DNA of 64,000 nt from Candidatus Vogelbacteria bacterium (lineage in GTDB: Bacteria; Patescibacteriota; Minisyncoccia; Phycocordibacterales; XYD1-FULL-46-19): positions 78,482-142,481 of the forward strand of contig CAIRHC010000007.1 of assembly GCA_903878275.1 (NCBI GenBank), written 5' to 3'. Position numbers and translations under genes: made by a program. The notes under the pieces are model-generated. The model made no database searches, was not told the origin of the DNA, and saw only the letters and a program-made list of their open reading frames with translations. Shown here piece by piece: positions 42,741 through 61,298 of this stretch (positions within the stretch are counted from its first letter, which is position 1; each line of letters begins with the position of its first letter).

Positions 42741-43445
42741 TTAGCCATGCGCCCAAGTGAGACCAAAAACTTGCTTCGCGCCGGATTTTTTCAATACTTT
42801 GCGAATTTCTTCGATGGTCGCACCAGTGGTGCAAATGTCGTCGATAACAATTATGGTTTTGTTTTTAAGGCGCTTTTTGTGCTGGGCACAAAAAGCGCCT
42901 TTTAAATTATCTAAACGCTCGCGACGGTTTCGCATTGACACTTGTGGCGGTGTCTCTTTTGTTTTTACCACCAAATTTGTTTCTAAACTAAAATTTTTTG
43001 GATCAAAATCTGTAAAATGCCTAGCAATTTCTTCGGCCTGATTAAAACCGCGTTGGTGTAAACGTTTTTTCGCTAGCGGTGCTGGTATCACCAAGATTTT
43101 TTCTTTATTTTGATTAAACAAAACTTCGTCGGCAAGCTCATTTAGCGCCAATTCGTACATCGGACGTGCCATTATTTGTGCCAGATCTTTAATGCCACGA
43201 TATTTTAACAACCAAACCACTTGTTTGGTTGTCGGATTTTTGTAATTAAATACCGAAAAAATTTCGTCAGAAATTTTTTCGGTATTAATTGGTAAACTTG
43301 CCAAACAATTATCACACAAAAAAGTTTCAGCTTGTTTACAACCAGCACAATGAGGTAAAAAAATCAGCGTAATTAGTTTGCGAAAGAAAACAAAAATAAA
43401 AAAATTTTGCCAGAAATCTTTTTGTGGATAAGTCGTCTTTTTCAT
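42741..43445 (-). CDS. comFC: ComF-family competence protein (phosphoribosyltransferase domain)
   Basis: N-terminal Cys4 + C-terminal VIDDICTTGAT PRTase motif. Confidence 0.75.
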   Translation of the reverse strand: MKKTTYPQKDFWQNFFIFVFFRKLITLIFLPHCAGCKQAETFLCDNCLASLPINTEKISDEIFSVFNYKNPTTKQVVWLLKYRGIKDLAQIMARPMYELALNELADEVLFNQNKEKILVIPAPLAKKRLHQRGFNQAEEIARHFTDFDPKNFSLETNLVVKTKETPPQVSMRNRRERLDNLKGAFCAQHKKRLKNKTIIVIDDICTTGATIEEIRKVLKKSGAKQVFGLTWAHG

Positions 43446-43515
43446 TTGCTATTTTTTAATCTACATATGATATAATAAAAGTTGAATTAAATTAAGTTTT
43501 CAAACTTAAATATTT

Positions 43516-44673
43516 ATGAGTATTCTCGATAGCGTATCAAAAATAGTCAAAGACAATTTTGGCAAAAAAGAAAAAAGCGTTGTCGCCATTGACTTCGGTA
43601 TTTCTTCGGTGAAAGTTATTCAACTTCGAAATGAAAAAGGTTTAGCGGTTTTGGAGACTTACGGCGAGTTGGCTTGTGGTCCATATGGCGATTTGGCTGT
43701 CGGGCAATCTTCAAATTTACCACCAGAAAAAATATTTGAGCTGGTCAGTGATTTATTTCGCGAGGCAAATATTACCGCCAAGGTTGGAGCGATTGCGGTG
43801 CCTTCGCGTACGAGCCTGATTGTCTCAATTGGAATTCCGGAAATGGAAGAAAGCAAATTGGCAGAAGTTGTCCCGATTGAAGCCCGAAAATATATTCCGG
43901 TACCAATTTCGGAAGTGATTCTTGATTGGTGGGTTGTTCCGAAAAATGCTCAAGAAAACGAAGCCGAAAAAAATCGAAAAGTTGAAGCTGGCGGTCAAGA
44001 CGGCACTAGTGCCGACCAAAAATATGGCAAAAAAGTTGAGGTCTTGATCGCGTCGATTCACAAAGATGTTATCCGCGCTTATCAAGATTTGAGTACTAAG
44101 CTCGGTTTGGAAGTTGATTCGTTTGAAATTGAGACCTTCAGTGCCATCCGGGCGGTCATGCCAAATGATCTTTCTGCGACCGTGATCTTTGATATTGGTG
44201 CTGGTACTTCAAAAATTTCTATCGTCGACTATGGTATTGTTCGACTTTCTCACACGATCAACAAAGGCTCACAAGATATTACGGTTTCTATTTCAAAATC
44301 CCTAAATATTCCGTTTGGCAAAGCCGAAGAAATAAAACGTCGTTACGGCTTAGTGGGAGATATTGAAAAAGGCGATCTGGTAGAGTCGATCAGTCCGACC
44401 GTAGAGTATATTTTTGCAGAAGCAAACAAAGTGATGCTGACTTACCAGAGAGAGCGAAGCCGAGCCGTGGACAAAATGATTCTGATCGGTGGCGGAGCGT
44501 TGCTCAAGGGTATTTTAGAAACAGCGAAAAGTATCGTGTCAGTGCCGGTCGTGGTCGGATTACCTTTTGATAAGGTAGAAACCCCGGCGTTTCTTAATAG
44601 TGTATTAAAAGAATCTGGGCCAGAATTTGCAGTGGCAATTGGTCTGGCTTTGCGAAAATTAGAAGACTTATAG
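43516..44673 (+). CDS. pilM: type IV pilus assembly protein PilM
   Basis: actin-like ATPase fold; AIDFG.SS.KV.QL N-terminus. Confidence 0.8.
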   Translation: MSILDSVSKIVKDNFGKKEKSVVAIDFGISSVKVIQLRNEKGLAVLETYGELACGPYGDLAVGQSSNLPPEKIFELVSDLFREANITAKVGAIAVPSRTSLIVSIGIPEMEESKLAEVVPIEARKYIPVPISEVILDWWVVPKNAQENEAEKNRKVEAGGQDGTSADQKYGKKVEVLIASIHKDVIRAYQDLSTKLGLEVDSFEIETFSAIRAVMPNDLSATVIFDIGAGTSKISIVDYGIVRLSHTINKGSQDITVSISKSLNIPFGKAEEIKRRYGLVGDIEKGDLVESISPTVEYIFAEANKVMLTYQRERSRAVDKMILIGGGALLKGILETAKSIVSVPVVVGLPFDKVETPAFLNSVLKESGPEFAVAIGLALRKLEDL

Positions 44674-44697
44674 GTCGAAAATATAAGAAAATTTTTT

Positions 44698-45315
44698 ATG
44701 GAAAATAACTCATTTAAATCATTTATACCAAAACAAGCAATCGGCGATTCTCTAAAAAAGAAAAAACCGCCCATTGATTTGATCACTTACTCGGTCGTTA
44801 TTGTGTTTGTTTTATCGTTTGCGTATTTTGCGGGAATGTATGCCTATCGTTTTTATCTTTATGACAATATTAATCGTTCTTGTCCTGACAATAGTGCCTC
44901 CGTCGCTTCTTGTGGTTTGCTCGCGACACTAGAAAAAGAAAAACAGAATTTCAATTACGATGAAATGGCACACTTGAAGCGGATGGATACAAAATTAAAA
45001 GGCGGGGTCAGTATTCTAAATAACCACCAGACTTTGTTGCCATTTTTCTCGGCACTCGGAAAAATGACTTTAGCTAGCGTTCAGTACACCAGTTTTACTT
45101 TTGACAAAAATGGCATTACGCTCGAGGGTATCGCTCCAAATTATGAAGCTATTGCCAACCAGCAAAAAGTTTTTTCCGAGCAACAAAGTCAATACAAATT
45201 TGCCAGCTTTGTTTTCTCTGATTTCAAAATAAATCAAAACAATAAAGTCGCGTTTAAACTGGCTTTATCGGTCGACAAATCGTTATTATCATATACAAAT
45301 AACCAAGCCCAATAA
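44698..45315 (+). CDS. pilN: PilN-like membrane protein
   Basis: short cytoplasmic N-terminus, single TM, position after pilM. Confidence 0.55.
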   Translation: MENNSFKSFIPKQAIGDSLKKKKPPIDLITYSVVIVFVLSFAYFAGMYAYRFYLYDNINRSCPDNSASVASCGLLATLEKEKQNFNYDEMAHLKRMDTKLKGGVSILNNHQTLLPFFSALGKMTLASVQYTSFTFDKNGITLEGIAPNYEAIANQQKVFSEQQSQYKFASFVFSDFKINQNNKVAFKLALSVDKSLLSYTNNQAQ

Positions 45316-45316
45316 T

Positions 45317-45919
45317 ATGACAAGATTATTCGTATCAATATTTCTCCTTATTACTTCTTTATCTCTCGTCTTTTATTTTGGAGCGATAATTAAAAATGGT
45401 AGTACCGATGCTTGGGCGCAGGGTTATCTTCTAAACAATTCCGACAAAGGCATCACTGGTTTGAAAGCCCAAGAGTTAGGCTTAAACGAAGCTTTAGGCA
45501 ATGCTCGAACCTTAAAAACAAAAATAAACGAATTGTCCAAGATCGAGCAAGCTATTCCCCAGCTTGATCGAGACAGGTTAGACAAGTTCATCCCTGACAG
45601 TATCGAAAACATCAATTTAATTATTGATATCAATACCATTGCGGTAAAGAATGGAATGATCATAAAAGATGTCCAATTCAAATCGACCGGCAATGAAAAA
45701 GCCGTCAGTGATGCGGCCGCCAAAGCGACAAATAGCGTCAAAATCGCCGAAACCGCCATTTCTTTTTCCGTGACTGGTGGCTATAAATCTTTTGCCGAAT
45801 TTCTAAAAGGTCTGTCTGATAGTATCCGCGTCACTGATGTTTCATCTTTGTCATTTAAGGTCGATGACAAAGGGCTAAATCAATACAATTTCGAGGTTAA
45901 AACTTACTGGGTAAAATAA
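45317..45919 (+). CDS. pilO: PilO-like membrane protein
   Basis: N-terminal TM + coiled-coil; position. Confidence 0.5.
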   Translation: MTRLFVSIFLLITSLSLVFYFGAIIKNGSTDAWAQGYLLNNSDKGITGLKAQELGLNEALGNARTLKTKINELSKIEQAIPQLDRDRLDKFIPDSIENINLIIDINTIAVKNGMIIKDVQFKSTGNEKAVSDAAAKATNSVKIAETAISFSVTGGYKSFAEFLKGLSDSIRVTDVSSLSFKVDDKGLNQYNFEVKTYWVK

Positions 45920-45924
45920 AAAAT

Positions 45925-46362
45925 ATGGATTCAAAAAATATAAAAATAGGAGTGGTAGCAATTCTTCTTTTGGTCGTAGCTTATTTTGCTTATGGTTATA
46001 TTACTGGCGATTCGATTCCACCACCAGCTGGCGGGGTGACGGTTACTAGTGGCGAGGGGGCAAGTGTGGCTCAAGCTTCTGGTATTGATGATCCATTTTT
46101 TGATTTACTGTTGGGCTTAAACACTGTCACTTTGTCAGAAAAATCTCTTTTGTCTGATCCGATTTTCAAAGATAAAATGCAAGATTTTAGCCAACCTTTG
46201 CCAACACCGGAAATTGGTCGAGCCAATCCATTTTTACCGGTTGGTTCAACTACCTCGGCAACTGATGGCTATGGTTTCAATAATAACACCGCCACCACCA
46301 CTATCTCCACAATAAATACTAGTAGTACGACCAGTAGCACGACAAAACCATCGGGAATTTAG
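45925..46362 (+). CDS. hypothetical TM protein with Ser/Thr-rich C-terminus (PilP-position)
   Basis: position in the pilMNO cluster. Confidence 0.4.
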   Translation: MDSKNIKIGVVAILLLVVAYFAYGYITGDSIPPPAGGVTVTSGEGASVAQASGIDDPFFDLLLGLNTVTLSEKSLLSDPIFKDKMQDFSQPLPTPEIGRANPFLPVGSTTSATDGYGFNNNTATTTISTINTSSTTSSTTKPSGI

Positions 46363-46403
46363 TTGAAAAAGTTTAAAAGTTTTTAGCGGACAAATTATTT
46401 CTT

Positions 46404-47975
46404 ATGGATGATTATGGTGATGTTCCTATAAAAAAACTAGACGACCAAAAGATCGCTTTTGAGGTTCTAAAATATATTCCTTCCGAATCCGCGATTTATT
46501 ATCAGCTGGTGCCTTTTGCTGTCCAAGATGGTGTGTTGGAGGTCGGAATGGTCAACCCAGATGACGCCGAAGCTCGCGATGCTTTGCAATTCATTGCATC
46601 TAAGACTGGTGCACCGTTCAAAATTTATCTCATATCAAAAAAAGATTTCGATGTTGCCATAAAAAGTTATGAAGGTTTGGCTGGTGCCAATATGGGTACG
46701 ACCGGCAACATCCAAACTGAAATTCAAGCGGCGGAATCCGCCGTGTCCAAATTTACTGGTGGTCGCGGTGAAAAAACTCCGACCGCGACGATCGTCGAAG
46801 ATGCCCCGGTGACAAAAGTTGTCTCGGTTATTATTCAAAACGCTTTGTCTGGCAATGCTTCTGATATTCACATTGAGCCGACCGCCGAAAATTTACAAGT
46901 TCGTTTTCGTGTTGACGGTATTTTGCACACCAGCTTGACGCCACCAATGACAGTCCACGAAGCGATTGTCGCGCGCATAAAAATTTTATGCAATTTAAAA
47001 CTAGACGAAAAACGTAAACCACAAGATGGTCGTTTTTCTTACGAGTTTGAAATGCGTAAGGTTGATTTTCGTGTCTCGACTTTTCCGACCGTTTGGGGGG
47101 AAAAGGTGGTGATGCGTATTCTTGATCCAACGAAAAAAGATGTCAATTTGAAATCGATTGGTCTGTCCGAAGAACAGCAACAAATCATCAAGGAAGCCCT
47201 AAACAAGCCCTATGGCCTAATCTTGCTCACTGGTCCGACTGGTTCTGGTAAGACGACGACTCTTTACGCAATGTTAAACGAGCTCGATAAAATAAAATAC
47301 AATATTGTCAGTCTTGAAGATCCGGTCGAGTACGATATTCCTGGTATTAGTCAGTCGCAAGTGCGACCAGAAATTGATTATACTTTTGCCAACGGTCTTC
47401 GCAGTATTTTGCGTCAGGATCCGGATATCATTATGGTTGGAGAAATGCGTGACGCCGAGACCGCCAAGCTCGCGATCCAGGCGTCACTCACTGGTCACTT
47501 AGTTTTGTCCACGCTACACACCAACAATTGCATCGGTGTTGTCCCTCGTCTGATCGATATGGGTATCGAGCCATATCTTATTCCGCCGACCTTGATTTTA
47601 TCGATTGGACAAAGACTTGCTCCGATTATTTGCGATGACGCCAAACGCTCCGAACCAATTGAAGAAAGTTTGAAAGTGATGATGGATCAAGAGTTTGCTG
47701 ATTTGCCCGAAGAGTTTCGTGCTAAGCTTCCTTCGTTTGACAATGTCTATCACGCGGAAAGTACGACCACTTGCCCGAGTGGCACCAAAGGGCGAATTGG
47801 CGTCTTTGAATTTTTGAGCATGGATACCGATCTTGAGCGGTTGATTTTAGATCGTCCGGGTGAAAATGAAATTTATAAGTATGCTCGGTCAAAAGGTTTT
47901 ATCTCAATGAAAGAAGATGCGATCTTGAAATCTTTCCAAGGTGTTATTTCTTTTGAAGAGGTAAACAAACTATGA
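46404..47975 (+). CDS. pilB: type IV pilus assembly ATPase PilB (GspE family)
   Basis: GPTGSGKTTT Walker A; Asp/His boxes; N-terminal GSPII_E_N-like domain. Confidence 0.88.
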   Translation: MDDYGDVPIKKLDDQKIAFEVLKYIPSESAIYYQLVPFAVQDGVLEVGMVNPDDAEARDALQFIASKTGAPFKIYLISKKDFDVAIKSYEGLAGANMGTTGNIQTEIQAAESAVSKFTGGRGEKTPTATIVEDAPVTKVVSVIIQNALSGNASDIHIEPTAENLQVRFRVDGILHTSLTPPMTVHEAIVARIKILCNLKLDEKRKPQDGRFSYEFEMRKVDFRVSTFPTVWGEKVVMRILDPTKKDVNLKSIGLSEEQQQIIKEALNKPYGLILLTGPTGSGKTTTLYAMLNELDKIKYNIVSLEDPVEYDIPGISQSQVRPEIDYTFANGLRSILRQDPDIIMVGEMRDAETAKLAIQASLTGHLVLSTLHTNNCIGVVPRLIDMGIEPYLIPPTLILSIGQRLAPIICDDAKRSEPIEESLKVMMDQEFADLPEEFRAKLPSFDNVYHAESTTTCPSGTKGRIGVFEFLSMDTDLERLILDRPGENEIYKYARSKGFISMKEDAILKSFQGVISFEEVNKL

Positions 47976-48136: not shown

Positions 48137-48532
48137 ATGGAAAATAACAACAATAAAAAAACTATTTTGATTATCGATGATGATAAGTTTTTGCTCGATA
48201 TGTATTCGATTAAGTTTAATGAAAGTGGTTTTAGTGTGGAGATGGCTTCCGGTGGTCCCGATGCCTTACGAAAATTAGAAGAAGGGCTTGATCCAGATAT
48301 TTTTTTAGTGGACATCGTGATGCCGGCAATGGACGGCTTCGAGCTAATGCAAGATCTTGCCGAAAAATTTAAAACCAAAAATAAAGTATTGATTTTCTTA
48401 TCAAATCTTGGTCAGAAAGAAGATGTCGAGCGAGGATTGGGGATTGGAGCTGACGGTTATATTGTCAAAGCCAGCACGACGCCGACCGAAGTGGTCAATA
48501 AAGTTTTAGAAATTGCGGGAAATAAAAGATAA
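48137..48532 (+). CDS. stand-alone response-regulator receiver domain (CheY/PilH-like)
   Basis: ILIIDDD...LVDIVMP..DG REC motifs. Confidence 0.75.
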   Translation: MENNNNKKTILIIDDDKFLLDMYSIKFNESGFSVEMASGGPDALRKLEEGLDPDIFLVDIVMPAMDGFELMQDLAEKFKTKNKVLIFLSNLGQKEDVERGLGIGADGYIVKASTTPTEVVNKVLEIAGNKR

Positions 48533-48544
48533 ATTTTAAAAAAG

Positions 48545-49609
48545 ATGAAAGATTATCGTAAAGAAATTGAAGAGTTGGTTTTGATTGTCGCCAAAGAAGG
48601 CGCTTCGGATTTGCATTTGTCGGCTGGTCGTCACCCGACGATTCGGGTTTCTGGCGATTTGGTGCCGATTGTTAAGAAGCCAGTTTTGACACCAGAAGAT
48701 ACTTTAGGTATTGCAATGGAGATTTTAAACGATGAAAACAAAAAAATCTTTCTCGAACAAAGAGAAGTTGATTTTTCTTATACCCCGACCGCCAATGTCC
48801 GTTTTCGTGGCAATGCTTTTTTCCAACGTGGCTTAGTCGGTATTGCTTTGCGTTTAATTCCGATGAATGTGCGGACATTGAAAGAATTAAATTTACCAGA
48901 TCGCCTGCTCGATTTCACCTTGAAAAAACAAGGCTTCTTTTTAGTTGTCGGACCGGTCGGTCAAGGTAAATCGACCACGCTCGCGGCAATGGTCCAAGTG
49001 ATCAACCAGCAACGTGCCGAGCATATTATCACGATCGAAGATCCGGTTGAGTATCTTTTTACCAGCGAACGTTCGATTATTGATCAACGAGAAGTGCGTT
49101 TTGATACTAAAAACTTTTTCACTGCTCTTCGCTCGATGTTTCGTGAAGATGTCAATGTGGCAATGATTGGAGAAATGCGTAATCCAGAGACAATCAGTAT
49201 GGCAGTCACCGCCGCGGAAACGGGGCACCTCATTTTATCGACTTTGCATACCAATAGCGCCGCTCAAACTATCGACCGTATTATTGACTCATTCCCTGGG
49301 GCTCAACAACACCAGATTATGACCCAGCTTGCCGGTTCGTTGCTCGGTATATTTTCCCAACGTCTGATTCCGCGTGTTTCTGGCGGTTTGATTCCAGCTT
49401 ACGAATTACTGGTCAATAATTCAGCTGTATCCAATCTTATCCGCGAAGGTCGCACCGCGGAAATCGACGTGATGATCGAAACCGGTAGTTCCGAAGGAAT
49501 GGTTGATCTAAATCGCGTGCTGGCCGAGCTCGTTCGGAGTGGTGAGATTTCCGCCGACAACGCTTTTCGTTATGCCATCAATCCAGAAAGTTTAACCAAA
49601 CTTATTTAA
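48545..49609 (+). CDS. pilT: twitching-motility ATPase PilT
   Basis: GPVGQGKSTT Walker A; 354 aa. Confidence 0.88.
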   Translation: MKDYRKEIEELVLIVAKEGASDLHLSAGRHPTIRVSGDLVPIVKKPVLTPEDTLGIAMEILNDENKKIFLEQREVDFSYTPTANVRFRGNAFFQRGLVGIALRLIPMNVRTLKELNLPDRLLDFTLKKQGFFLVVGPVGQGKSTTLAAMVQVINQQRAEHIITIEDPVEYLFTSERSIIDQREVRFDTKNFFTALRSMFREDVNVAMIGEMRNPETISMAVTAAETGHLILSTLHTNSAAQTIDRIIDSFPGAQQHQIMTQLAGSLLGIFSQRLIPRVSGGLIPAYELLVNNSAVSNLIREGRTAEIDVMIETGSSEGMVDLNRVLAELVRSGEISADNAFRYAINPESLTKLI

Positions 49610-49632
49610 ATTAGAAATAACCAAATAATACT

Positions 49633-50841
49633 ATGCTCTTTATTTACAAAACATTAGACAAGGCGGGGACAGAACAATCTGGCAGTATCGAAGCGCCCAA
49701 TATTGACTTGGCGATTAGTTCTCTTCAGCGACGAGGTTTGGTGATCGTCTCGGTCAAGCCAGAAGAAGTGGCTGGGCAGAATTTTTTGAGTCGCTTCAGT
49801 ATCTTTCAGCGTATTTCAAATAAAGACGTCGTGATGCTTTCCCGGCAAATTGCGACAATGTTCGAAGCCAAAGTTTCCGTGATGGCATCTTTTCGTTTGC
49901 TGGCAAATGAGAGTGAAAATCCGATTTTGCGAATGGCTTTGACCGATATCACCGATGACATCAAAGGCGGTATTCCAGTCTCGGCCGCCCTTGCCAAGCA
50001 TCCCAATATTTTCTCTGATTTTTATGTCAATATGGTCCGGGCCGGTGAAGAAACCGGAAAAATGTCTGAAGCGTTTTCTTATTTAGCCGATCACCTTGAT
50101 CGATCCTACGCTTTGTCGTCGCGAGCAAAAAATGCTCTGATTTATCCGGCGTTCGTGGTCGCCTCGTTCGTGGTGGTGATGGTTGTAATGATTATCTTTA
50201 TTATCCCACGCCTATCGGCGGTTTTGATGGAAACGGGTCAAGATTTGCCGATTTATACCAAAGTCGTCATCGGAATTAGTAATTTTGCTTCAAGCTACTG
50301 GCTTCTTTTCTTGGTAGCGTTTGGGGCGATTGGTTTTTATCTTTATCAATATACTTCTACCATAAAAGGCAAAGAAGCCCTGGCACGATTAAAAATCTCT
50401 ATCCCATATGTTGGTAGTTTGTATCGCAAGCTTTATTTAGCCCGTATTGCCGACAACATCAACACGATGCTTTCTAGTGGTATTTCAATGGTGCGGGCTT
50501 TGGAAATTACCGGTGCGGTGGTGGGTAATGAAGTGTACAAAAATATTTTACTCGAATCAGCCGAATCAATTAAGTCGGGAAGTACCGTTTCCGATATTTT
50601 TTCGCGTTATCCAGAAATTCCGGGGGTGATGGTGCAGATGATTAAAGTCGGAGAGGAGACTGGTAAGGTTGGTTTTACTTTGGAGAAATTATCGGTTTTT
50701 TATGAAAGAGAAGTAAATAATGAGGTGGATACTTTGGTGGGCTTGATTGAGCCGGTGATGATCGTGGTCTTGGGCGTCGGCGTGGGTTTACTTTTGACCT
50801 CGGTACTCGTGCCAATTTACAACTTGGCTTCAGCGATGTAG
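49633..50841 (+). CDS. pilC: type IV pilus platform protein PilC (GspF family)
   Basis: 402 aa, two GspF repeats, 3 TM. Confidence 0.85.
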   Translation: MLFIYKTLDKAGTEQSGSIEAPNIDLAISSLQRRGLVIVSVKPEEVAGQNFLSRFSIFQRISNKDVVMLSRQIATMFEAKVSVMASFRLLANESENPILRMALTDITDDIKGGIPVSAALAKHPNIFSDFYVNMVRAGEETGKMSEAFSYLADHLDRSYALSSRAKNALIYPAFVVASFVVVMVVMIIFIIPRLSAVLMETGQDLPIYTKVVIGISNFASSYWLLFLVAFGAIGFYLYQYTSTIKGKEALARLKISIPYVGSLYRKLYLARIADNINTMLSSGISMVRALEITGAVVGNEVYKNILLESAESIKSGSTVSDIFSRYPEIPGVMVQMIKVGEETGKVGFTLEKLSVFYEREVNNEVDTLVGLIEPVMIVVLGVGVGLLLTSVLVPIYNLASAM

Positions 50842-50848
50842 GTGAGAA

Positions 50849-50884
50849 CCCCCAGAATTTGCCAAGGCAAATTCTGGGGGTTCT
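50849..50884 (+). terminator. terminator cccccagaatttgcc-aa-ggcaaattctggggg + T-run
   Basis: perfect 15-bp stem. Confidence 0.7.
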
Positions 50885-50994
50885 GGTTTCCGAGGTCGAA
50901 CCTTAAATCCCCAAAAAGTTTACCCTGTAGTGAAAAATTCTCGTTTTTCTACTACCGGGGGTTCGACTTCAAATTTAAAAAACAAAAAATAATT

Positions 50995-51369: not shown

Positions 51370-51621
51370 AATAGCGGGGAATTATCCACCGTTTACTCTT
51401 AAACCTCCTAGGCATTGCAATCTCTCGGTGCTATAATTAAAAAATTAAAAACAACATTATTATTTAATAATCAATTATTTCCGGAAAATTTTGCCAAGCA
51501 AAATTTTCCGGTCAACAAATAAGCTTCCCCGAGGTCGAGTCGTTTCTCGGAGGTCGAACCTTAAATCCCCAAAAAGGTTTGACCTCGGATAATTCGACCT
51601 CGGGGAAACAAAAACATTTCT

Positions 51622-52131: not shown

Positions 52132-52170
52132 ATATAATTTAAAATTATTAACTAACATAATTCAAAATTC

Positions 52171-53547: not shown

Positions 53548-53833
53548 TCAGCGGTAGGGAAGTAGCAAAAAAGCAAAAAGGGGATAACTACTTTTTCTCG
53601 GTTTATTTTTTTGTGGTATCATGCTTAAAGTAATATCAAATTTATTAAAATTATTAGCTTTTAAGAGATGTCCAGAAAATTTTGCTTGGCAAAATTTTCC
53701 GGAAAAGGCTAAAACATCAAAAGACGTTCGCCTAAACAAAAAAAATATGAAAAAAATTAAAGAACTAACCGGAAAAATTTTTTCAGGAAAAAATTTTTCC
53801 GGTCAAGTCCAAAATAATAAAGCCTGCCCCGTA

Positions 53834-54298
53834 GTGAAAAATTCTCGTTTTTCTACTACTGGGGGCTTCACTTTAATCGAATTATTAGTCGTCATTGCCA
53901 TTATCGGTATTTTAGCCGGCATTATTTTGGTTTCCCTAAGTAGCGCCAGGACCAAAGCCAAGACCACTGCCACCTTTGCTTCACTGAATGGTTTAAGACC
54001 AGCGATCGCGATGTGTTGCGGGAATGGGAGTGACTTGGTTGGGGCTGGAACACCACCAGAAACACAAATACCAGCTGTCGGCGGAACAGACATCTGTGAT
54101 GCGGCTAATCCTGTCGGTGTCAATTTACCGACCGCTGCCCAACTTGGGGTTAATATTGTAGAATATACTGCGACGAAAGGTTGTTCTGATCCCGAACCAT
54201 ATTTTTCTGTTCAAACCTCTGGTTCTTCTAATCCTCTTTGTGATAGTGCCGGCACATACACCATCGGTGTCTCAACTTCGTCGTCTCCGTGCAACTAA
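53834..54298 (+). CDS. type IV pilin; GTG start at 53834 preferred, alternative ATG at 53747 would give a 40-aa leader
   Basis: ..KNSRFSTTGG|FTLIELLVVIAIIGILAGII; the sequence between 53747 and 53834 contains a REP-like palindrome. Confidence 0.7.
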   Translation: MKNSRFSTTGGFTLIELLVVIAIIGILAGIILVSLSSARTKAKTTATFASLNGLRPAIAMCCGNGSDLVGAGTPPETQIPAVGGTDICDAANPVGVNLPTAAQLGVNIVEYTATKGCSDPEPYFSVQTSGSSNPLCDSAGTYTIGVSTSSSPCN

Positions 54299-54584
54299 CA
54301 TTAATTAGTAGCGAAGAATTTTATTTTTACCTCAAATTCTTAAGGTTGTGAAAAAGAATAAAGAACTAACCGGAAAAATTTTTTCAGGAAAAAATTTTTC
54401 CGGCCAACCTCATCACCAAAAAGCCTACCCTGATTTCTCGGAGGTCGAACCTTAAATCCCCAAAAAGTTTACCCCGTAGTGAAAAATTCTTATTTTTCTA
54501 CTACTGGGGTTCGACCTCGGAGAATACAACCTCGGGAAAACAGGCTAAAACATCAAAGATGTTCGCCTAAACAAAAACATTTTT

Positions 54585-55163
54585 ATGAAAAAATATTTAC
54601 AACCCACAACCCAGAAACTACAACTTAGCCGTGGCTTCACCTTAATAGAGCTTCTGGTTGTCATCGCCATTATCGGTATTTTGGCGGGCATTGTCCTGAC
54701 TTCGCTTTCTAGCGCTCGAGCAAAAGCCAAAGATTCCGCCCTTATCTCTGGCTTGTCTGGTTTAAGATCGCAGATTGAGACGGTGGCTAGTGATAATTAT
54801 GGACCAATAGTTGGAGCTTGGGGAGTTAAATCGGACGGCACAGGGACAACTGGTTCTAAGGGTGTAACGGATTCGTCTGTTTGTTCTACTTATGCTAGTA
54901 CTGATGGTGGCGTAGTTTATAAAATGATGAAAGATCTAGCCAAACAATCTGGTAATAACGTCGTTTGTGCGGTGGGAGTTGGTGGAAGAACCTGGGTAAT
55001 TTTTGGAGTTTTGCCTAGTACCGCTAATCCTAATGACCCTACTACTGCTGATTATTATTGTTATGATAGTTCTGGTGGTTCTAAAAAACAGGTCGGTTTC
55101 CCGGTGAATGTAGTTGGTGCTGGAGTGGAAAATGTCAATCTTGATGTAAAATGTCAGTCATAG
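54585..55163 (+). CDS. type IV pilin
   Basis: ..LQLSRG|FTLIELLVVIAIIGILAGIV. Confidence 0.88.
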   Translation: MKKYLQPTTQKLQLSRGFTLIELLVVIAIIGILAGIVLTSLSSARAKAKDSALISGLSGLRSQIETVASDNYGPIVGAWGVKSDGTGTTGSKGVTDSSVCSTYASTDGGVVYKMMKDLAKQSGNNVVCAVGVGGRTWVIFGVLPSTANPNDPTTADYYCYDSSGGSKKQVGFPVNVVGAGVENVNLDVKCQS

Positions 55164-55412
55164 ACATTATTTAAATTTAAAAAAATTATCCCCGGAATTT
55201 TTGCTAGCAAAAATTCCGGGGATAATTCTCAAAACTAAATTTCCTGAAAATTTTAAAAATCGGCTGGCGCAACCGCTCGGATTTGCCAGGGCAAATCCGA
55301 GCGGTTGCCACTTTTCCTCTCTGCGAACCTCCAAACCAGTGGATAACTCCGTATGTAATCTTTTTTTTATATGTTATTATTTAGACAATGGTGAAAAAGA
55401 GAAATCATAATT

Positions 55413-55754
55413 ATGATTAAAAAAGAAATAAAACCAAAAGTTACTCTAGAAAGTATTAATAATACGATTGAGCACTTGGCTATAAGTGTGGCAAATGGTT
55501 TTGCTGCCGTCGATGAAAGATTTAATAAGGTAGATGAAAGATTTGAGCAGGTAGATAAAAGATTCGATAAGGTTGAAAACGATATTGTCGTGATAAAAAA
55601 AGACTTAAATATCGTCAAGACCGATGTCGCTGTCCTAAAGACCGACTTGCGAAAATTAGACCACAAGATTGGTCTGGTAGATAAAAGAAATCGCGAAGAT
55701 ATCGACGCTCTCGCTTCCGATATGGTGTTGGTCAAGAAAAAAGTGTCTTTATGA
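55413..55754 (+). CDS. coiled-coil protein, paralogue 2
   Basis: MIKKEIKPKVTLE..; FNKVDERFEQVDKRFDKVE heptads. Confidence 0.55.
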   Translation: MIKKEIKPKVTLESINNTIEHLAISVANGFAAVDERFNKVDERFEQVDKRFDKVENDIVVIKKDLNIVKTDVAVLKTDLRKLDHKIGLVDKRNREDIDALASDMVLVKKKVSL

Positions 55755-55832
55755 GTTTGAACCTTACCGGAAATTTTGACTAGTCAAAATTTCCGGTAAG
55801 GTTCCCCAAACATTTTTAAAATAAACATAATT

Positions 55833-56174
55833 ATGATTAAAAAAGAAATAAAACCAAAAGTTACCTTGGAAGGTCTGAACCAGACGGTTGAGAAATTGGC
55901 TACTAGTATGATCAAGGGTTTTGCTCATACTCACGAGCTGATCGAAAATCTGGCGATCAGCACCAAGGCTGGTTTTGATAAAGTAGACGAAAGATTTGAT
56001 AAAGTGGATGAAAGATTAGATAAAGTGGAGGGGAGATTAGGTAAGGTTGAAAACGACATCACTGGCATCAAACAACGCCTGACCAGCCTAGACAACCGTC
56101 TAGACACTTTTGTCGATCACGAAAAGCGTTTGACCAAAGTCGAATCAGCCTTGAAAATTAGAGTCAAACATTAA
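55833..56174 (+). CDS. coiled-coil protein, paralogue 3
   Basis: MIKKEIKPKVTLE..; C-terminus identical to paralogue 1. Confidence 0.55.
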   Translation: MIKKEIKPKVTLEGLNQTVEKLATSMIKGFAHTHELIENLAISTKAGFDKVDERFDKVDERLDKVEGRLGKVENDITGIKQRLTSLDNRLDTFVDHEKRLTKVESALKIRVKH

Positions 56175-56340
56175 CAAAATTCCCCGAGGTCGAACCTTTT
56201 TGGGGATTTAAGGTTCGACCTCGGCAAGATCCCCCAATATTTTTAATAAAAAATAACCATTTTAAAAATTAATTTCAAGGCTAAAACATTTCAACCCAAA
56301 ACGATTCTCGTTTGACTACGAAATGTTCGCCTAAATCAAG

Positions 56341-58110
56341 ATGAAAAAACAAATCATAATCATCGCCTCCATTTTTATCGCCATTTTTGCTCTAGCCTCC
56401 GCCTACCTCCCCGGCGTGCTAAGTAGTTCGTCAAAAAAAGCCGAAGCCGATACCGCCTCGACAGTTGACAGCCGTCTCTTGGGGTACATCTGGAGTTCAA
56501 ATATTGGTTGGGTCAAGTTAGATCCCAGCACTCCAGCTCCAAAATTTGAAGACGAAAAAAATAATGTCCGGATTATGTCCGATGGCACTGTCGTGGGCTA
56601 TGCGTGGAGCTCAAACATTGGCTGGATTAGATTTGATCCGGTTGTTGATCTTGCTATCCCCACCGCAACTCCCCCGTCTTATTCACCGATAGATGTTTAC
56701 AGTAGTAATACTTCAGTTCGGTACGACAAAGCTGCGAATAAATTTTCTGGTTGGGCAAGAGTTTGTTCGGTTTTTGTCGGTGATACTTGTGCCGGGGCAT
56801 TAAAAGACGACGTAGTCAGAGGTGGCTGGGACGGCTGGGTCCAAATGCGAAATGTAAGTATCGACTTGTCTGGGACAGAGACTGGCCAAGTAGGTTCTCT
56901 GGTTGGCTGGGCGTGGGGCGATCTAAATATCGGTTGGCTTAAATTTGACTGGAAACATATTCCTCCTGGCGGATGTACTCCAGATCCCGCCAATTGCGGT
57001 TGTTGCCCTGGTATTTCCTGTTCTTGTCCTCCACCTATTCCGACTCCGCCCAACGCCCTCTGTGTCGCCGAAGGAGGCATAAATGTGCTCGATGCGAGCG
57101 GTAATGTTGTCGGTGTTAATTTCCCTTTGAATACTCCACCAACCCCTATTGACCTTAAAGTTGGTTCTTTGTCTGGAGGAAACGGTAGTTTTGCTTATGA
57201 ATGGACACAAGACGTTGGAAATTTATCTCCCCTGATCGGAAGTTTTGATTCCGCTGTTCCCACTACGACTTTCCAGGTCTTTTATGGTACTGTCGGTGTT
57301 TACAATCCAAAAATCAAGATCACCAGCGGTGGGGCTTCAAATGAAATTGAGTGTTCTGCAAGCGGAATCACTGTTGATAATTTTTATACCTTTAATTGCG
57401 AAAACGGAATGATCACCGCCAACAGTACAACTTATTGTAATCACGAAACAGCGACGACAACACTGGCTAGTGTATTCCAAGGAGCTTCGGACTTTGCCTT
57501 TACGGCTGTTCCAGATACTGGGTATAAACTTGATGCTTGGGGAGGTTCTCTTTGTAATGGATCAGCTGCCGGCTCTAATTGTACGGACAATAACCACAAC
57601 GGTTCTTCTCAAACCATCACTGCTAGTTTTGTACCGGACACTGCAGATAGTTGTGGATTTAGTTTTAGTGATCCCAATGCCCTTGATATAAGTCTCTCTT
57701 TTGGCAACAGTCCGACGATTGGTTATTTTTATCCAAGTTCTCCTAGCAATTCTGCCACTATCATTTTCACCCCGGGTGACCCGAACTGTACAGGAGGAGT
57801 TAATTTGACAAGTAGTAATTACCCCGCTAATCCTAGCCTCGATGAACCTTTTTACGAATCACAAATGGTCTGTGCCAAGAAGGTGGGTTCCGGTTATTCA
57901 TCTTTTACGGTGGCTAATTGTACCGGTCTAAACGATGGTGGTAAGGTTGGGGTTTCAGCCAGAAGCACGGCTGATCTACAAGCTGATCTCGGTACCGCTT
58001 CGCCAATGATTAATTGTAAAATGGTAAAGATAAAAAATAAAGCGGCTGCTCCAGTTGCTGTAACCGAACAGGAAGTAAAGGTTTGTATTAACGATATAGT
58101 AATTAACTAA
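56341..58110 (+). CDS. large secreted/membrane-anchored protein with three (L/V)xG(Y/W)xWSSNIGW(V/I)(K/R)(L/F)D repeats and a Cys-rich segment
   Basis: 589 aa; N-terminal TM; lies between the pilins and pilD. Confidence 0.6.
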   Translation: MKKQIIIIASIFIAIFALASAYLPGVLSSSSKKAEADTASTVDSRLLGYIWSSNIGWVKLDPSTPAPKFEDEKNNVRIMSDGTVVGYAWSSNIGWIRFDPVVDLAIPTATPPSYSPIDVYSSNTSVRYDKAANKFSGWARVCSVFVGDTCAGALKDDVVRGGWDGWVQMRNVSIDLSGTETGQVGSLVGWAWGDLNIGWLKFDWKHIPPGGCTPDPANCGCCPGISCSCPPPIPTPPNALCVAEGGINVLDASGNVVGVNFPLNTPPTPIDLKVGSLSGGNGSFAYEWTQDVGNLSPLIGSFDSAVPTTTFQVFYGTVGVYNPKIKITSGGASNEIECSASGITVDNFYTFNCENGMITANSTTYCNHETATTTLASVFQGASDFAFTAVPDTGYKLDAWGGSLCNGSAAGSNCTDNNHNGSSQTITASFVPDTADSCGFSFSDPNALDISLSFGNSPTIGYFYPSSPSNSATIIFTPGDPNCTGGVNLTSSNYPANPSLDEPFYESQMVCAKKVGSGYSSFTVANCTGLNDGGKVGVSARSTADLQADLGTASPMINCKMVKIKNKAAAPVAVTEQEVKVCINDIVIN

Positions 58111-58115
58111 TTAAG

Positions 58116-58871
58116 ATGCTCGAGACAACCGTTCTTCTCGTTCTTGGTCTACTTATCGGCAGTTTCCTAAATGTCGTGATTCTAAGATACAACACGGGTC
58201 GCTCGCTTGGCGGGCGATCGGGTTGTCTCTCTTGCAATAAGCGTCTTCACTGGTACGAGCTTTTGCCGGTCTTTAGTTACTTGGCACAAAAAGGGAAGTG
58301 TCGTGGTTGTGCTAGTAAAATATCTATTCAATATCCGCTAGTGGAAGTTTCTACCGCAATCCTGTTTGCCTTGGTGGCGTGGCGTTTTGCCGACGATCTG
58401 GTCAATCTGATTTTCTTTTTGCTCGTGATACCAGTACTCGTGGTCTTGGTCGCTTACGACACCAAGCACAAAATCATTCCCAATTTTTTTGTTTATTTTT
58501 TTATTTTTCTGGCTTTAGTGAAAGTCTTATTGATTAGCCCGGGCTGGGATGGCTGGCTCGGGGGCTTGGTCTTGGCTGGTTTTCTTGGTTTTCTTTGGCT
58601 TGTGTCGAGCGGTCGCTGGCTCGGTTTTGGTGACGTAAAATTGGTTCTTGGTATCGGTCTGATTCTGGGCTGGCGAGGTGGCTTGTCGGCGTTGTGTCTT
58701 TCTGTCTGGATTGGTGCCGCAGTCGGTCTTATTTTAATTTTTATTGGTCGGGCGAAGTTGTTTCGTTTTCAAAAATATATTACAATGAAGAGTGAATTAC
58801 CATTTGCTCCATTTTTAGTGTTAGGATTTTTATTAAATCTTTTGTTCTCAATCAATGTTTTGCCTTTTTAA
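58116..58871 (+). CDS. pilD: prepilin peptidase (A24 family)
   Basis: N-terminal CxxC..CxxC zinc knuckle, polytopic; LGLLIGSFLNVVI. Confidence 0.85.
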   Translation: MLETTVLLVLGLLIGSFLNVVILRYNTGRSLGGRSGCLSCNKRLHWYELLPVFSYLAQKGKCRGCASKISIQYPLVEVSTAILFALVAWRFADDLVNLIFFLLVIPVLVVLVAYDTKHKIIPNFFVYFFIFLALVKVLLISPGWDGWLGGLVLAGFLGFLWLVSSGRWLGFGDVKLVLGIGLILGWRGGLSALCLSVWIGAAVGLILIFIGRAKLFRFQKYITMKSELPFAPFLVLGFLLNLLFSINVLPF

Positions 58872-58938
58872 CAAAAAAATAAAGTTGAACTTTGCAAAAA
58901 AACTTGCTTCCTATGAAGGTTCGGCGGTTTACCGGGTA

Positions 58939-59553
58939 GTGAAAAATTCTCATTTTTCTACTGCCCGGCGGGGATTCACGGTCATCGAATTGGTCGTGGT
59001 CATCGCTATTTTTATTATTATCACCGGTATTGTCGTGGCTGATATTCCATCTTTTCAAAATAAAAGTTCGTTGGATCTGACGGTCAGTGAAGTCGCCACT
59101 TATATCCGTGGAGCGCAGGTTTATGGAGCTGTGCAAAAGGATACACCATCAGGAGTAGGAAAATCTGTTTATGGAATTAGCTTAACGCAAGGAGCTTCTG
59201 AATTTTATTTATTTCAGAATGATAAAGCACCTCTTCCGCACAAGGAAAACTACGTCATCAAAGGTTTTGATATAGCTAAGATTTGCCAGAAATCTACTGG
59301 TGGGACTGTTGATTCTTCTGCTTCTAGTTTAGACATAGTCTATACTCCAAGTAATTACGAAGTGAACATCGGGACAGCCGTCGGGGCAATTTTTTATTCT
59401 AATTTTGACGCCGATAACCCTGACGACAATAAAATGTCCGGTATCGAATATGTCGATATAAAAATTAGCAACAAAAGAAATCCCACCCTACCGGGTTGTG
59501 TGCGAGTTTATTCCAACGGGCAGGTGGCTATTACTAATTGTGATGGTTGCTAA
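58939..59553 (+). CDS. minor pilin/pseudopilin (GTG start)
   Basis: (M)KNSHFSTARRG|FTVIELVVVIAIF. Confidence 0.6.
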   Translation: MKNSHFSTARRGFTVIELVVVIAIFIIITGIVVADIPSFQNKSSLDLTVSEVATYIRGAQVYGAVQKDTPSGVGKSVYGISLTQGASEFYLFQNDKAPLPHKENYVIKGFDIAKICQKSTGGTVDSSASSLDIVYTPSNYEVNIGTAVGAIFYSNFDADNPDDNKMSGIEYVDIKISNKRNPTLPGCVRVYSNGQVAITNCDGC

Positions 59554-59569
59554 AAAAAGATTTTTAAAA

Positions 59570-60175
59570 ATGTTTAATAAAATAAAAATTAACAAAGCTG
59601 ATCGGGGAGCGGAAAAATCGGGTCTTTCTGCCGTCCGCGGTTTTACGCTTGTCGAAATGATGGTTTCGGTATCTATTTTTGTCATCGTCGCTTTTATTGT
59701 GGTCTCTACTCTTCTTACGATGTCCGCCGCTTATCGTAAAGCCCAAGCAATGCGCCTGCTTCTGGATAATTTCAACTTCGTTATTCAGTCGATGTCACTT
59801 GGTATCCGAGAGGGGGTTAATTATCGTCAGGGTAGTTTGTGTTCCACGGCAGATAGTTGCATTCAGTTTTTACCGATTGATGCTTGGATGGCAAGTCCTA
59901 TGGGGGATCCTGTCTGCTATGATTATATTTCTCCTACAATATACAAATGTACAGCTTGTCCTTGCTCTGATGTGAACACCAGAACCCAAATCGTTTCTGG
60001 CGATATCATCGTTGATAAATTACAATTTGATATTTTTAACCTTGGAGTTCCCAATAAAAAGAAATTGGTTAAGATTCGGATTGGTGGAAAAACCGGGAAG
60101 ACGTCAAAAGATCTAAGCAGCTTTTTTATCCAAAACTCTGTTTCGCAAAGAAACAAGGATGTTGCGATTCCCTAA
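59570..60175 (+). CDS. minor pilin
   Basis: ..SAVRG|FTLVEMMVSVSIFVIV. Confidence 0.65.
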   Translation: MFNKIKINKADRGAEKSGLSAVRGFTLVEMMVSVSIFVIVAFIVVSTLLTMSAAYRKAQAMRLLLDNFNFVIQSMSLGIREGVNYRQGSLCSTADSCIQFLPIDAWMASPMGDPVCYDYISPTIYKCTACPCSDVNTRTQIVSGDIIVDKLQFDIFNLGVPNKKKLVKIRIGGKTGKTSKDLSSFFIQNSVSQRNKDVAIP

Positions 60176-60177
60176 AA

Positions 60178-60699
60178 ATGGCAAAAAATTATAAAAACAA
60201 AAAAAGAGGATTTACGTTGATCGAGACTTTTGTGGCGATTACGATTTTAATGATCGCCGTTCTTGGTCCGTTATCCTTACTATCTAGTGCTCTTAAAAAT
60301 GCTAGTTATGTGCAAAATGAGATTATTGCTACTTATTTGGCTCAAGAAGGTCTCGAGCTGGTGCTCGACTTAAGAAACAACGGACCGCTTTCGTATGATG
60401 GTGCCTCCGGTTATTTGAATGGGGTATTAATTAGTTTCACTACTCAAAAAGTCACCGACTATACGGGCAATATTTGTCTTAATTCCATTAGTGGTTACTA
60501 TACAGTAGCCGATGCTAATCTCTGTAATAGTGGTGACAAATCAACGATTTTTAAAAGGACAGTTACTATCCATCAGACGGTTTATGATGGCTCTCCATCA
60601 GACGGTCAATTTTGGATTTCTTCATATGTAGATATCGGTAGCCCAGCTCGAAGAGTCCAAACAAGTAATCGAATTTTTATAAATCCACCAACATCTTAA
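60178..60699 (+). CDS. minor pilin (PilV-like)
   Basis: KKRG|FTLIETFVAITILMIAV. Confidence 0.65.
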   Translation: MAKNYKNKKRGFTLIETFVAITILMIAVLGPLSLLSSALKNASYVQNEIIATYLAQEGLELVLDLRNNGPLSYDGASGYLNGVLISFTTQKVTDYTGNICLNSISGYYTVADANLCNSGDKSTIFKRTVTIHQTVYDGSPSDGQFWISSYVDIGSPARRVQTSNRIFINPPTS

Positions 60700-61298
60700 T
60701 GAAACATAATTATTTTAAAAAACAAGGATTTGCCTTACTCTATGCTATTTTGATCAGCGGTGTTATTGCTATTGTGGGTATTATTTTGGTAAACATAACT
60801 ACCAAGCAAATAGTTTTTTCTTCTCTTTCTCGTAATTCTGAAATTTCTTATTATTATTTAGCTAATTCGGCACGAGAATGTTTAGAGCACTATGTTGCGC
60901 TTAACCCAGGTTATATGTTTTATAATAAGGACTGGATTGATCCTTCGAATCACCCACTTGGAACGAGAGTCATTTTTACCGACACCACATCGGCACCCTT
61001 AAAATTAAGTTGTTTTGGAACAAAATATGATGTTGAGTTATTTCTGAATAGCGCCGACCCGAACTATCCAATTTATCGCACCAATGGTAATGTCACGATC
61101 AATGATGTAGCAGGCTCTCGACAAGTAAATTTATCGGTTCAGTTTAATAGTGATTGCGTCTTAAACTTGGGTCATTGTCCAAATTCAACAGGCACCTCTT
61201 TAATTACAAAAAATAGAGCGGTCATAACAACCTATGGCCAAAACCCATCGACTGGTTCCCAAGTGACAAGGAGAACGGCCGTGGCCGCTTTTAATTAG
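60699..61298 (+). CDS. minor pilin (PilX-like)
   Basis: KKQG|FALLYAILISGVIAIVG. Confidence 0.55.
   Translation: MKHNYFKKQGFALLYAILISGVIAIVGIILVNITTKQIVFSSLSRNSEISYYYLANSARECLEHYVALNPGYMFYNKDWIDPSNHPLGTRVIFTDTTSAPLKLSCFGTKYDVELFLNSADPNYPIYRTNGNVTINDVAGSRQVNLSVQFNSDCVLNLGHCPNSTGTSLITKNRAVITTYGQNPSTGSQVTRRTAVAAFN

Follow-up and report, generated by a model that had tools for sequence, protein, structure and literature searches.

The locus described here occupies positions 42741-61298 of a 64,000-nt window, the whole stretch of DNA analyzed, from the genome of a Candidatus Vogelbacteria bacterium (contig CAIRHC010000007.1). It carries a type IV pilus (T4P) operon, and the interval between pilC and pilD holds, beside four pilin genes, three coiled-coil genes, many palindromes and a Y1 (HUH) tyrosine transposase-family gene that resembles the repetitive extragenic palindromic (REP)-associated tyrosine transposases (RAYTs). 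Taken together, the sequence data make it rather probable that this is a standard, vertically inherited Paceibacteria T4P operon with a resident RAYT-type Y1 gene and its hairpins in the variable zone.

Genes were called from an open reading frame (ORF) map and from Pfam/NCBIfam hidden Markov model (HMM) scans against family cutoffs. The operon is headed by a divergent gene for a ComF-family phosphoribosyltransferase-like protein (42741-43445, minus strand; PF00156, 33.4 bits, cutoff 26.3), which matches TIGR00201 with an E value of 5.8e-26 and 91.6 bits, under that model's cutoff of 233.55. All genes from pilM to the last pilin gene lie on the plus strand. The machinery begins with PilM, of actin-like platform ATPase fold (43516-44673; PF11104, 117 bits; TIGR01175, 153.8 bits, cutoff 133), followed by a bitopic PilN-like protein (44698-45315) with a sub-threshold match to PF05137 (E = 0.02), here accepted as the putative PilN on position and synteny, and by PilO (45317-45919; PF04350, 34.4 bits, cutoff 22). 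Next is a small membrane-anchored ORF with a Ser/Thr-rich tail and no HMM match (45925-46362); at least 15 loci have a homologue of it in the slot that separates pilO from pilB. Then come the assembly ATPase PilB (46404-47975; T2SSE, PF00437, 408 bits; MshEN, PF05157, 48 bits), which reaches an E value of 7.9e-147 against TIGR02538 yet stays under the equivalog cutoff, a stand-alone CheY/PilH-like receiver protein (48137-48532; PF00072, 71.2 bits), the retraction ATPase PilT (48545-49609; TIGR01420, 415.3 bits, cutoff 319.1) and the platform protein PilC (49633-50841; T2SSF, PF00482, 193.4 bits in two stretches). The prepilin peptidase PilD (58116-58871; A24_N_bact, PF06750, 105 bits; Peptidase_A24, PF01478, 41.7 bits) lies beyond the variable interval and ahead of the minor pilins.

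How ordinary is this operon? A PilC scan with one genome per species returned 551 relatives, and the best 80, all of them Paceibacteria/Parcubacteria-type metagenome-assembled genomes from the candidate phyla radiation (CPR) with the closest at 72% PilC identity, were used for synteny counts by tblastn of the window proteins against their loci (20 kb each). The order across these loci is comF on the opposite strand, pilM, pilN, pilO, a small ORF, pilB, the receiver gene, pilT, pilC, one or more pilins, variable cargo, pilD and the minor pilins. PilC is found in all 80 loci, PilB and PilT in 79 each, PilD in 71, PilM in 65, the receiver gene in 63 (between pilB and pilT), comF in 62 (at the same position), the third minor pilin in 61, PilO in 60, and PilN and the second minor pilin in 57 each; in close relatives ligA follows the operon directly. 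The locus is a complete monoderm/CPR-style T4P operon, and its gene order, shared by most of the 80 loci, makes it one of a known and widespread kind. Co-localized PilB/T/C/M/N/O/D without PilQ is widespread in CPR genomes (Meheust et al. 2019, PMC6744442), and the clusters described there and in Saccharibacteria (PMC9894109, PMC11623550) have the same PilM/N/O, PilB, PilT, PilC and PilD with multiple pilins, no PilQ secretin and ComF nearby. The present operon likewise contains no secretin, as reported for CPR genomes, and differs from those clusters by what fills the pilC-pilD interval, probably the operon's variable cargo zone: one RAYT-like gene, genes for three coiled-coil proteins and closely set palindromes. 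T4P function has been tested in Saccharibacteria only and not in Paceibacteria. If the proteins act as their families do, PilD would cut the pilin leaders at G|F(T/S)L(I/V)E; PilB, PilC and PilM/N/O would assemble the fibre, primed by the four minor or pseudo-pilins; PilT would pull it back; and the receiver protein would link a signal to assembly or retraction. A secretin would be unnecessary in such an envelope.

The initial annotation had described a complete T4P here and proposed an HMM check of each gene. Every gene it listed was recovered in its place by ORFs, Pfam and NCBIfam, and ORFs 45925-46362 and 56341-58110 (589 aa) can be added to its list. The key genes pass their HMM thresholds, with PilN sub-threshold, so failed thresholds give no ground for rejecting the description. 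Its further proposal that T4P with ComF/ComEC form a DNA-uptake apparatus fares less well: a Pfam scan of 20 further window ORFs turned up no ComEC, ComEA or DprA, though they may lie elsewhere in the genome, and the label therefore leans on the single divergent ComF-family gene. It also held that this copy stands out; the repeats, the Y1 transposase-family gene, the coiled-coil paralogues and the palindromes are indeed present, but the overall gene order is ordinary among the 80 loci. As such, the pilus operon offers nothing new: it is the T4P cluster conserved in CPR bacteria, for which roles in attachment and DNA uptake have been proposed before.

Four pilin genes follow pilC: pilA1 (51622-52131; leader MKKYLNKSSG|FTLIEL; N_methyl, 37.3 bits; TIGR02532, 32.7 bits, cutoff 16.3), pilA2 (52171-52671; N_methyl, 38.4 bits), pilA3 (53621-54298 as the long ORF; N_methyl, 28.1 bits at residues 81-103) and pilA4 (54585-55163; N_methyl, 35 bits). 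Behind pilD stand the minor pilins mp1 (58855-59553; N_methyl, 20.7 bits, slightly below the cutoff of 21.2), mp2 (59498-60175; 24.9 bits) and mp3, with a GspI/PilV-like N terminus (60178-60699; 25.8 bits; TIGR01707, E = 3.7e-7), and then the pseudo-pilin-like mp4 (60699-61298), which has no HMM match. The N_methyl cutoff is passed by pilA1 to pilA4, mp2 and mp3, and a class III signal (G|F-x-x-x-E) is present in seven proteins in the form G|F(T)(L/V)(I/V)E, which in the four pilins reads G|FTLIEL. The assignment of mp4 is made on position and on a pseudo-pilin N terminus (KKQG|FALLY, lacking Glu5); its homologue closes the operon in 21 loci. Some starts need correction. The long pilA3 ORF is probably an artefact, because its upstream part recurs as noncoding DNA at 54349-54430, and the true start would be GTG 53834, giving MKNSRFSTTGG|FTLIEL; mp1 probably starts at GTG 58939, giving MKNSHFSTARRG|FTVIEL, and mp2 probably at 59570.

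The pilins share their 46-49 N-terminal mature residues at 67-86% identity (86% for the first 49 residues of pilA1 and pilA2), and the corresponding coding repeats measure 95-154 nt at 62-81% identity. Full-length identity is only ~42% (pilA4 versus pilA1 or pilA2), and pilA3 can be aligned to the others at the N terminus only. Such low full-length identity suggests old paralogy and no recent segmental duplication. Hence, the extensive internal duplication noted earlier is real as far as the repeats go, but consists mostly of old pilin paralogy plus short hairpin and leader modules. An assembly artefact was rejected, since the repeat copies are only 62-93% identical and have unique sequence between them.

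Between pilA2 and pilA3 lies the Y1 gene (52813-53469; 218 aa; PF01797, Y1_Tnp, 35.8 bits, cutoff 23), whose best NCBIfam model is that of REP-associated tyrosine transposases, NF047646 (E = 4.5e-11). An alignment of 40 sequences shows no variation at H79 and H81, which form the HUH motif, or at Y139. The AF2 model (pLDDT 92.4) finds its best PDB match in 4er8, the E. coli RAYT with a REP hairpin (E = 7.8e-6; TM 0.68, target-length normalized). By motif and predicted fold, the protein appears catalytically intact and is a putative single-strand DNA enzyme; as in its family, it would bind the flanking hairpins as single-stranded DNA and now and then copy or rearrange them. At least 964 homologues, mostly from Patescibacteria, are named "transposase" or "REP element-mobilizing transposase RayT" at source.

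The position of the gene is shared with relatives. In all, 110 loci (L001-L110) were fetched. Y1 orthologues of 75-76% identity occupy the same slot, between pilins, after pilC and before a large ORF and pilD, in at least two other lineages (L081-L084/L094/L110 and L085-L087), and the pilus proteins beside them have diverged to a like degree (PilC, 70-72%), in keeping with co-inheritance. A general association of Y1 with pili was ruled out: the gene is present in only 2 of the 80 pilus loci, roughly the chance level for a single-copy gene in a genome under 1 Mb, and homologues at 66%, 55% and 50% identity lie in unrelated contexts, away from pilins. Y1 would thus be a resident, inherited part of this clade's operon, neither a fresh insertion sequence (IS) nor a general pilus component.

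An ordinary, recent IS200/IS605-type insertion that disrupted the operon and left the palindromes as its ends and debris is a rival explanation, one that we regard as very unlikely. The Pfam family bears the name "Transposase IS200 like"; the TnpA proteins of IS608 and ISDra2, which share the Y1 HUH fold and the hairpin-recognizing chemistry, are the next significant fold matches behind 4er8; the more distant homologues are spread over many contexts; and in L035 and L088 the flanking hairpins stand in direct orientation, as IS200/IS605 ends do, with a second, partial Y1 copy in L035. IS200/IS605 elements, however, are multicopy and mobile, with direct-orientation subterminal hairpins and often tnpB, whereas the present gene has one copy in the window, inverted flanks and no adjoining tnpB-sized ORF on the ORF map. 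The 218-aa protein has a 70-aa C-terminal extension and a RAYT as its best fold match, there is no GC anomaly at the gene, the pilus genes are all uninterrupted, and the same slot is kept in at least two other species-level lineages at a divergence equal to that of the neighboring pilus genes. The transposase of the initial annotation is thus present as a Y1 transposase-family gene, RAYT-like and ~75% identical to occupants of the same slot in relatives, but not as an intruding IS.

The second line of evidence for a resident RAYT-type gene comes from the hairpins around it. The repeated unit consists of the hairpin GGGGAGGTTGAGCCTCCCC, a spacer of 16-18 nt and TTGTGTTATAAT, and inverted copies bracket Y1. 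The left unit (52708-52812, plus strand) is preceded by four 16-nt copies of the hairpin's left arm, and the right unit (53495-53540, minus strand) is the inverted copy, its hairpin and TTGTGTTATAAT directed into the 3' end of the gene; complementarity between the two flank hairpins (52765-52783 and 53521-53539) is 100%. In each of seven genomes, hairpins stand on both sides of the Y1 homologue; they have genome-specific stems around an AGG...CCT core and are inverted in the window, L085, L090 and L092. A TGTGTTRTAAT box faces inward on both sides of Y1 in the window, L081 and L085 (alignment A3), and in the same alignment 90% of the cells of the seven-pair stem are paired, with three pairs changed on both sides.

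Copies of this hairpin extend beyond the flanks. Its core, AGGTYSARCCT, turns up 11 times in the window where chance would give 0.19, and 10 of these sites fall within 50.9-61.5 kb, between pilC and the end of the operon. Of 93 fetched loci, those with three or more copies of the core all bear Y1, and L088 and L090, which are not pilus loci, are among them. Hairpins that stand singly with the box are found at 21782, at both Y1 flanks and as three tandem 71-nt units that close the operon (61306-61542, plus strand; half-arm repeat, hairpin AAGGTTCAACCTT, then CATTTGTGTTGTAATATT; Tandem Repeats Finder score 353) and that pair as inverted repeats with the right Y1 flank; L103 has a comparable unit directly after mp4, as in the window. 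Inverted doublets form longer, REPIN-like hairpins (GAGGTCGAACCTT, 11 nt, AAGGTTCGACCTC) at 50892, 51550, 54441 and 56186. The full unit was detected in 17 stretches among 241 million metagenome records, 7 of them in pilus/Y1 loci of the same clade. Variation is also seen between strains: a 44-nt unit of hairpin plus TGTGTTATAAT upstream of Y1 has a copy number of 2 versus 1 in samples that are otherwise identical, the strains L083 (~1340-1430) and L081 (~7950-8000) having identical Y1 proteins and differing by one such unit. Copies of the Y1 hairpins would, on these sequences, account for part of the palindromes of the locus.

A separate observation concerns L088 (7950-11400; JGI contig Ga0265297_10000211), where a 66%-identical Y1 homologue lies outside any pilus operon, and 8 of the 9 AGG-loop-CCT hairpins of that 16.7-kb locus gather by phage-capsid-like, RelB/YafQ and Fic genes. 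This clustering suggests that the hairpins travel together with the Y1 gene.

Could the palindromes instead be unrelated to Y1? They would then be normal intrinsic terminators and terminator-promoter cassettes, grown in number through slippage and through duplicated pilin and coiled-coil gene cassettes, with Y1 simply a gene in their midst. Long palindromes are found all over the window (41 reach the census threshold of 12 pairs), including a GC-rich family, AACCGCCCGAGGCAAGCCTCGGGCGGTT, with 5 copies between genes of the ribosomal region; slippage could yield the tandem copies; most palindromes of the CCGGAAAATTTTGC type have nothing in common with the Y1 flanks; and the TGTGTTRTAAT box approximates the local extended -10 element and is correctly placed before at least two genes (21842 and Y1). 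We nevertheless hold this explanation to be unlikely, since the AGG-loop-CCT hairpin accompanies Y1 into non-pilus contexts of other genomes and is essentially missing from the 80 pilus loci where these lack Y1, since the units face inward at both Y1 flanks, where a promoter on the 3' side would be pointless, and since the architecture is kept while the stem sequences are genome specific.

Several observations weigh against a resident RAYT-type gene with its own hairpins. The Y1 protein stays under the NF047646 cutoff (42.8 versus 80 bits), and neither its single sequence nor a 40-sequence profile gave a significant sequence-level match to solved RAYTs; identity to 4er8 over the structural alignment is only ~12%. 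The flank hairpins are direct in two of the seven genomes (L035 and L088) and heterogeneous in L081, and no conserved GTAG-type guide tetranucleotide was seen 5' of the hairpin in alignment A3. Within the window a single unit (21782) lies outside the locus, 10 of the 11 core sites being at most 9 kb from Y1, and the full unit is rare among the metagenome records. Several palindrome families, namely, the CCGGAAAATTTTGC type and the leader hairpin treated below, are without a demonstrated link to Y1. Finally, TGTGTTRTAAT is also similar to the usual extended -10 promoter of the organism (47978 and 61995 have boxes like it), and some units may therefore be plain terminator-promoter modules.

The arrangement of gene and hairpins fits the RAYT/REP pattern (PMC2817692, PMC5581495). 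Like the RAYT (TnpA_REP/YafM, 4ER8) with REP/BIME (bacterial interspersed mosaic elements) of E. coli and the RAYT/REPIN systems of Pseudomonas (PMC2817692, PMC3116915, PMC5581495), it combines the HUH + Tyr Y1 fold, a single copy (here, in the window), a position conserved in relatives, inverted flanks of short GC-stem hairpins, and nearby singlets and inverted doublets. It differs from them in scoring below the NCBIfam cutoff, in its C-terminal extension and low identity, and in having no GTAG-type tag; its hairpin unit includes the TGTGTTRTAAT box, the copies cluster by the gene, and the host is a CPR bacterium. Our literature search found no report linking REP/RAYT with Parcubacteria or Patescibacteria. 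RAYT/REP-like systems have been studied almost only in Proteobacteria. Such systems, with short genome-specific hairpins, seem to exist in Patescibacteria as well, and annotators should therefore not take the "IS200-like transposases" of this group for active insertion sequences.

Another question is whether the Y1 gene acts on the pilins. Two strains of a sister species (L094, 7806-8874, versus L110, 1793-2782) differ by replacement of the globular domains of both pilins between flanks that are 98.5-99.2% identical; the left breakpoint falls in the conserved pilin N-terminal segment, and the right one hits the REP hairpin that precedes Y1, within its loop, where 57 nt are missing in L110. A domesticated RAYT-like enzyme and hairpins forming a dedicated pilin-diversification or switching module, in which single-strand cleavage and joining guided by the hairpins would reshuffle, duplicate or exchange pilin cassettes and leaders between pilC and pilD, would account for this breakpoint, for the retention of Y1 among pilins across ~25-30% protein divergence, for the REP-like units that bracket the variable zone (50.9-61.5 kb), and for a hairpin element that serves as the leader of two unrelated pilins and has two orphan copies inside REPIN-like hairpins. 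An association of TnpA_REP with hypervariable prochlorosin genes has been described, for which the authors later saw weak evidence of causation (bioRxiv 10.1101/2020.03.09.984088). Yet ordinary homologous recombination explains an allele replacement with a breakpoint in the N-terminal helix equally well, a single breakpoint lies at a hairpin, the occurrence of Y1 in the 80 pilus loci is roughly that of chance, its homologues at 50-66% identity are not beside pilins, and the pilins of the window are old paralogues with no fresh copies. We consider such a module highly improbable; if true, a role of RAYT and hairpins in pilin variation would be a new mechanism of targeted diversification, for which the present evidence is thin.

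Variable pilin islands are known from the pilA allele groups of Pseudomonas, from pilE/pilS of Neisseria and from the Piv-driven pilin inversion of Moraxella. The present locus resembles them in a conserved N-terminal segment with a hypervariable globular part, in a recombinase-family gene beside the pilins, and in the strain-level allele replacement of the sister species. Unlike in those islands, no silent cassettes, invertible segment or G-quadruplex (G4) element were found at the locus. The pilins are likely the host-recognition organelle of these episymbionts. The pilC-pilD interval, a hot spot of lineage-specific cargo and strain-level pilin replacement, is the place to seek determinants of host specificity in Paceibacteria.

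Not all palindromes of the interval are Y1 hairpins. Palindromes with at least 12 pairs number 11 in the 5.4 kb from 50.8 to 56.2 kb versus 30 in the other 58.6 kb, an approximately fourfold higher density. An Rfam scan of the window reached gathering scores for a tmRNA and two tRNAs only, none inside the locus. The block behind pilC (50845-50971, plus strand) consists of a perfect 19-bp palindrome and a REPIN-like hairpin (GAGGTCGAACC...GGTTCGACTTC) that encloses an orphan copy of the leader hairpin, and its predicted RNA fold reaches -65 kcal/mol (z = -8.9 versus shuffles). Ahead of pilA1 (51409-51606, plus strand) a promoter-like site with 10 of 12 matches and a TG extension (51409-51437; promoter scan) is followed by a palindrome (51481-51511) and a nested REPIN-like hairpin (51525-51606), with a leader fold of -70 kcal/mol (z = -9.6); the pilA3 leader has a z of -6.0. 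The blocks upstream of pilA3 and pilA4 are duplicates of each other (82 nt at 85% and 72 nt at 93% identity), and the one before pilA4 (54349-54584, plus strand) repeats the palindrome found upstream of pilA3, has an orphan leader hairpin enclosed in a REPIN-like hairpin, and also includes a small GGCTAAAACATC...GATGTTCGCC stem. That small stem (GGCTAAAACATC...GTTCGCC) stands ahead of both pilA3 and pilA4, and a longer variant stands ahead of the 589-aa ORF. The census places two long palindromes of 23 and 19 pairs behind pilA4 (55182-55308, strand not assigned); the 69-aa ORF that covers them (55201-55410) has no HMM match and is probably no gene. In transcripts, the hairpins and the remaining long palindromes would bring about termination, attenuation or stabilization, by which the pilins would be expressed separately from the machinery genes and at other levels.

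The leader hairpin CCCCGTAGTGAAAAATTCTCGTTTTTCTACTACTGGGG (38 nt; range, 38-42) occurs in four copies, with none expected for its 26-nt core. Two stand at pilA3 (53822-53863) and mp1 (58927-58968), where they hold the probable GTG start and encode leaders of the form MKNS[R/H]FST..., and two are orphans nested in REPIN-like hairpins (50918-50959 and 54467-54508). The stem is preserved by compensatory changes. None of the 110 fetched loci contains the element, and the mp1 orthologues have short leaders unrelated to it. It possibly sequesters the start codon or is an element recruited as a leader. Rickettsia palindromic elements are in-frame palindromes within coding genes. The leader hairpin is like them in that a structured palindrome supplies two pilin genes with the 5' end that codes for their leaders.

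The three coiled-coil genes lie at 50995-51369 (cc1, 124 aa, start corrected to 50995), 55413-55754 (cc2, with a perfect palindrome of 23 bp behind it at 55759-55804) and 55833-56174 (cc3, followed by a REPIN-like hairpin at 56184-56224). Their mutual amino-acid identity is 39-67% (cc1 to cc3, 67%; cc1 to cc2, 39%), and over their last 120 nt cc1 and cc3 reach 91% identity. cc2 is 48% identical to the gene behind pilC in L081, L094 and L110, with a weaker relative (28%) in L107, so that a coiled-coil gene in this position is inherited in one sister lineage too; tblastn against the 80 Paceibacteria loci found none. Searches of Pfam, NCBIfam, PHROGs and PADLOC gave generic coiled-coil matches, with 52 weak database relatives, and a phage or defense reading was rejected, the lone phiKZ_IP match being scarcely above its cutoff (28.8 versus 27). 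The genes encode a clade-specific, small cytoplasmic coiled-coil protein in three copies. An integron-like cassette array of small ORFs and imperfect palindromes was also ruled out, because the locus lacks an integrase and conserved ends of the attC type, and because its genes are pilus components that are conserved.

The last gene before pilD encodes a predicted surface protein, membrane-anchored and beta-rich, of 589 aa without a Pfam or NCBIfam match (56341-58110), which has variable Ig-like domains at its C terminus. Its N-terminal helix is followed by a beta-rich, conserved domain (~170 aa) whose repeats are of the GYAWSSNIGWI type; in the window protein and homologues P0173-P0292 the family repeat reads G(Y/W)AWSSNIGWIxF, with invariant Trp and Gly. 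The N-terminal ~200 aa are common to 660 Patescibacteria homologues, and the C termini are variable, sometimes with PKD or Ig-like matches. The family often adjoins pilD, holding the same slot in L001, L002, L003, L009, L010, L085 and L103. With an AF2 model of pLDDT 66, Foldseek against PDB returned nothing at E <= 0.001 and generic Ig-like matches only; from its position alone, our guess is a pilus-associated or surface adhesin.

Elsewhere in the window, a second palindrome family, AACCGCCCGAGGC(AA/TT)GCCTCGGGCGGTT, has five near-verbatim intergenic copies in the ribosomal-protein region (8140-8169, 8879-8906, 9763-9790, 12652-12689 and 19757-19791). These look like bidirectional terminators and may be another REP-like family. 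Near-perfect palindromes also lie within ORFs, namely, the ferric-reductase-like gene (fre, 41784-41821), ligA (62413-62445), the start of ndk (14109-14144) and comF (42862-42906 and 43245-43290). These recall the Rickettsia elements; alignments of ligA and comF gave no clean in-frame insertion, the ligA palindrome lying in a loop of varying length among relatives and those of comF in alignable sequence.

The gap between the last pilin gene and ligA holds, on the minus strand (61526-62009), a HicA toxin gene (PF07927, 46.6 bits) and a weak HicB-like antitoxin gene. In L083 and L085 ligA comes straight after the operon, and in the window the tandem REP-like units aim into the 3' end of the HicA/HicB pair. 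Upstream of comF, 40848-42739 encodes a NOX-like membrane ferric reductase (Ferric_reduct + FAD + NAD) and then a secreted cytochrome b5-like protein, redox equipment that is unexpected for a CPR genome. Further upstream, next to recG (ORF 37091-39346), lies a tRNA-Ile gene (37010-37083) with the anticodon TAT (UAU), which is uncommon in bacteria and might permit AUA decoding without lysidine modification.

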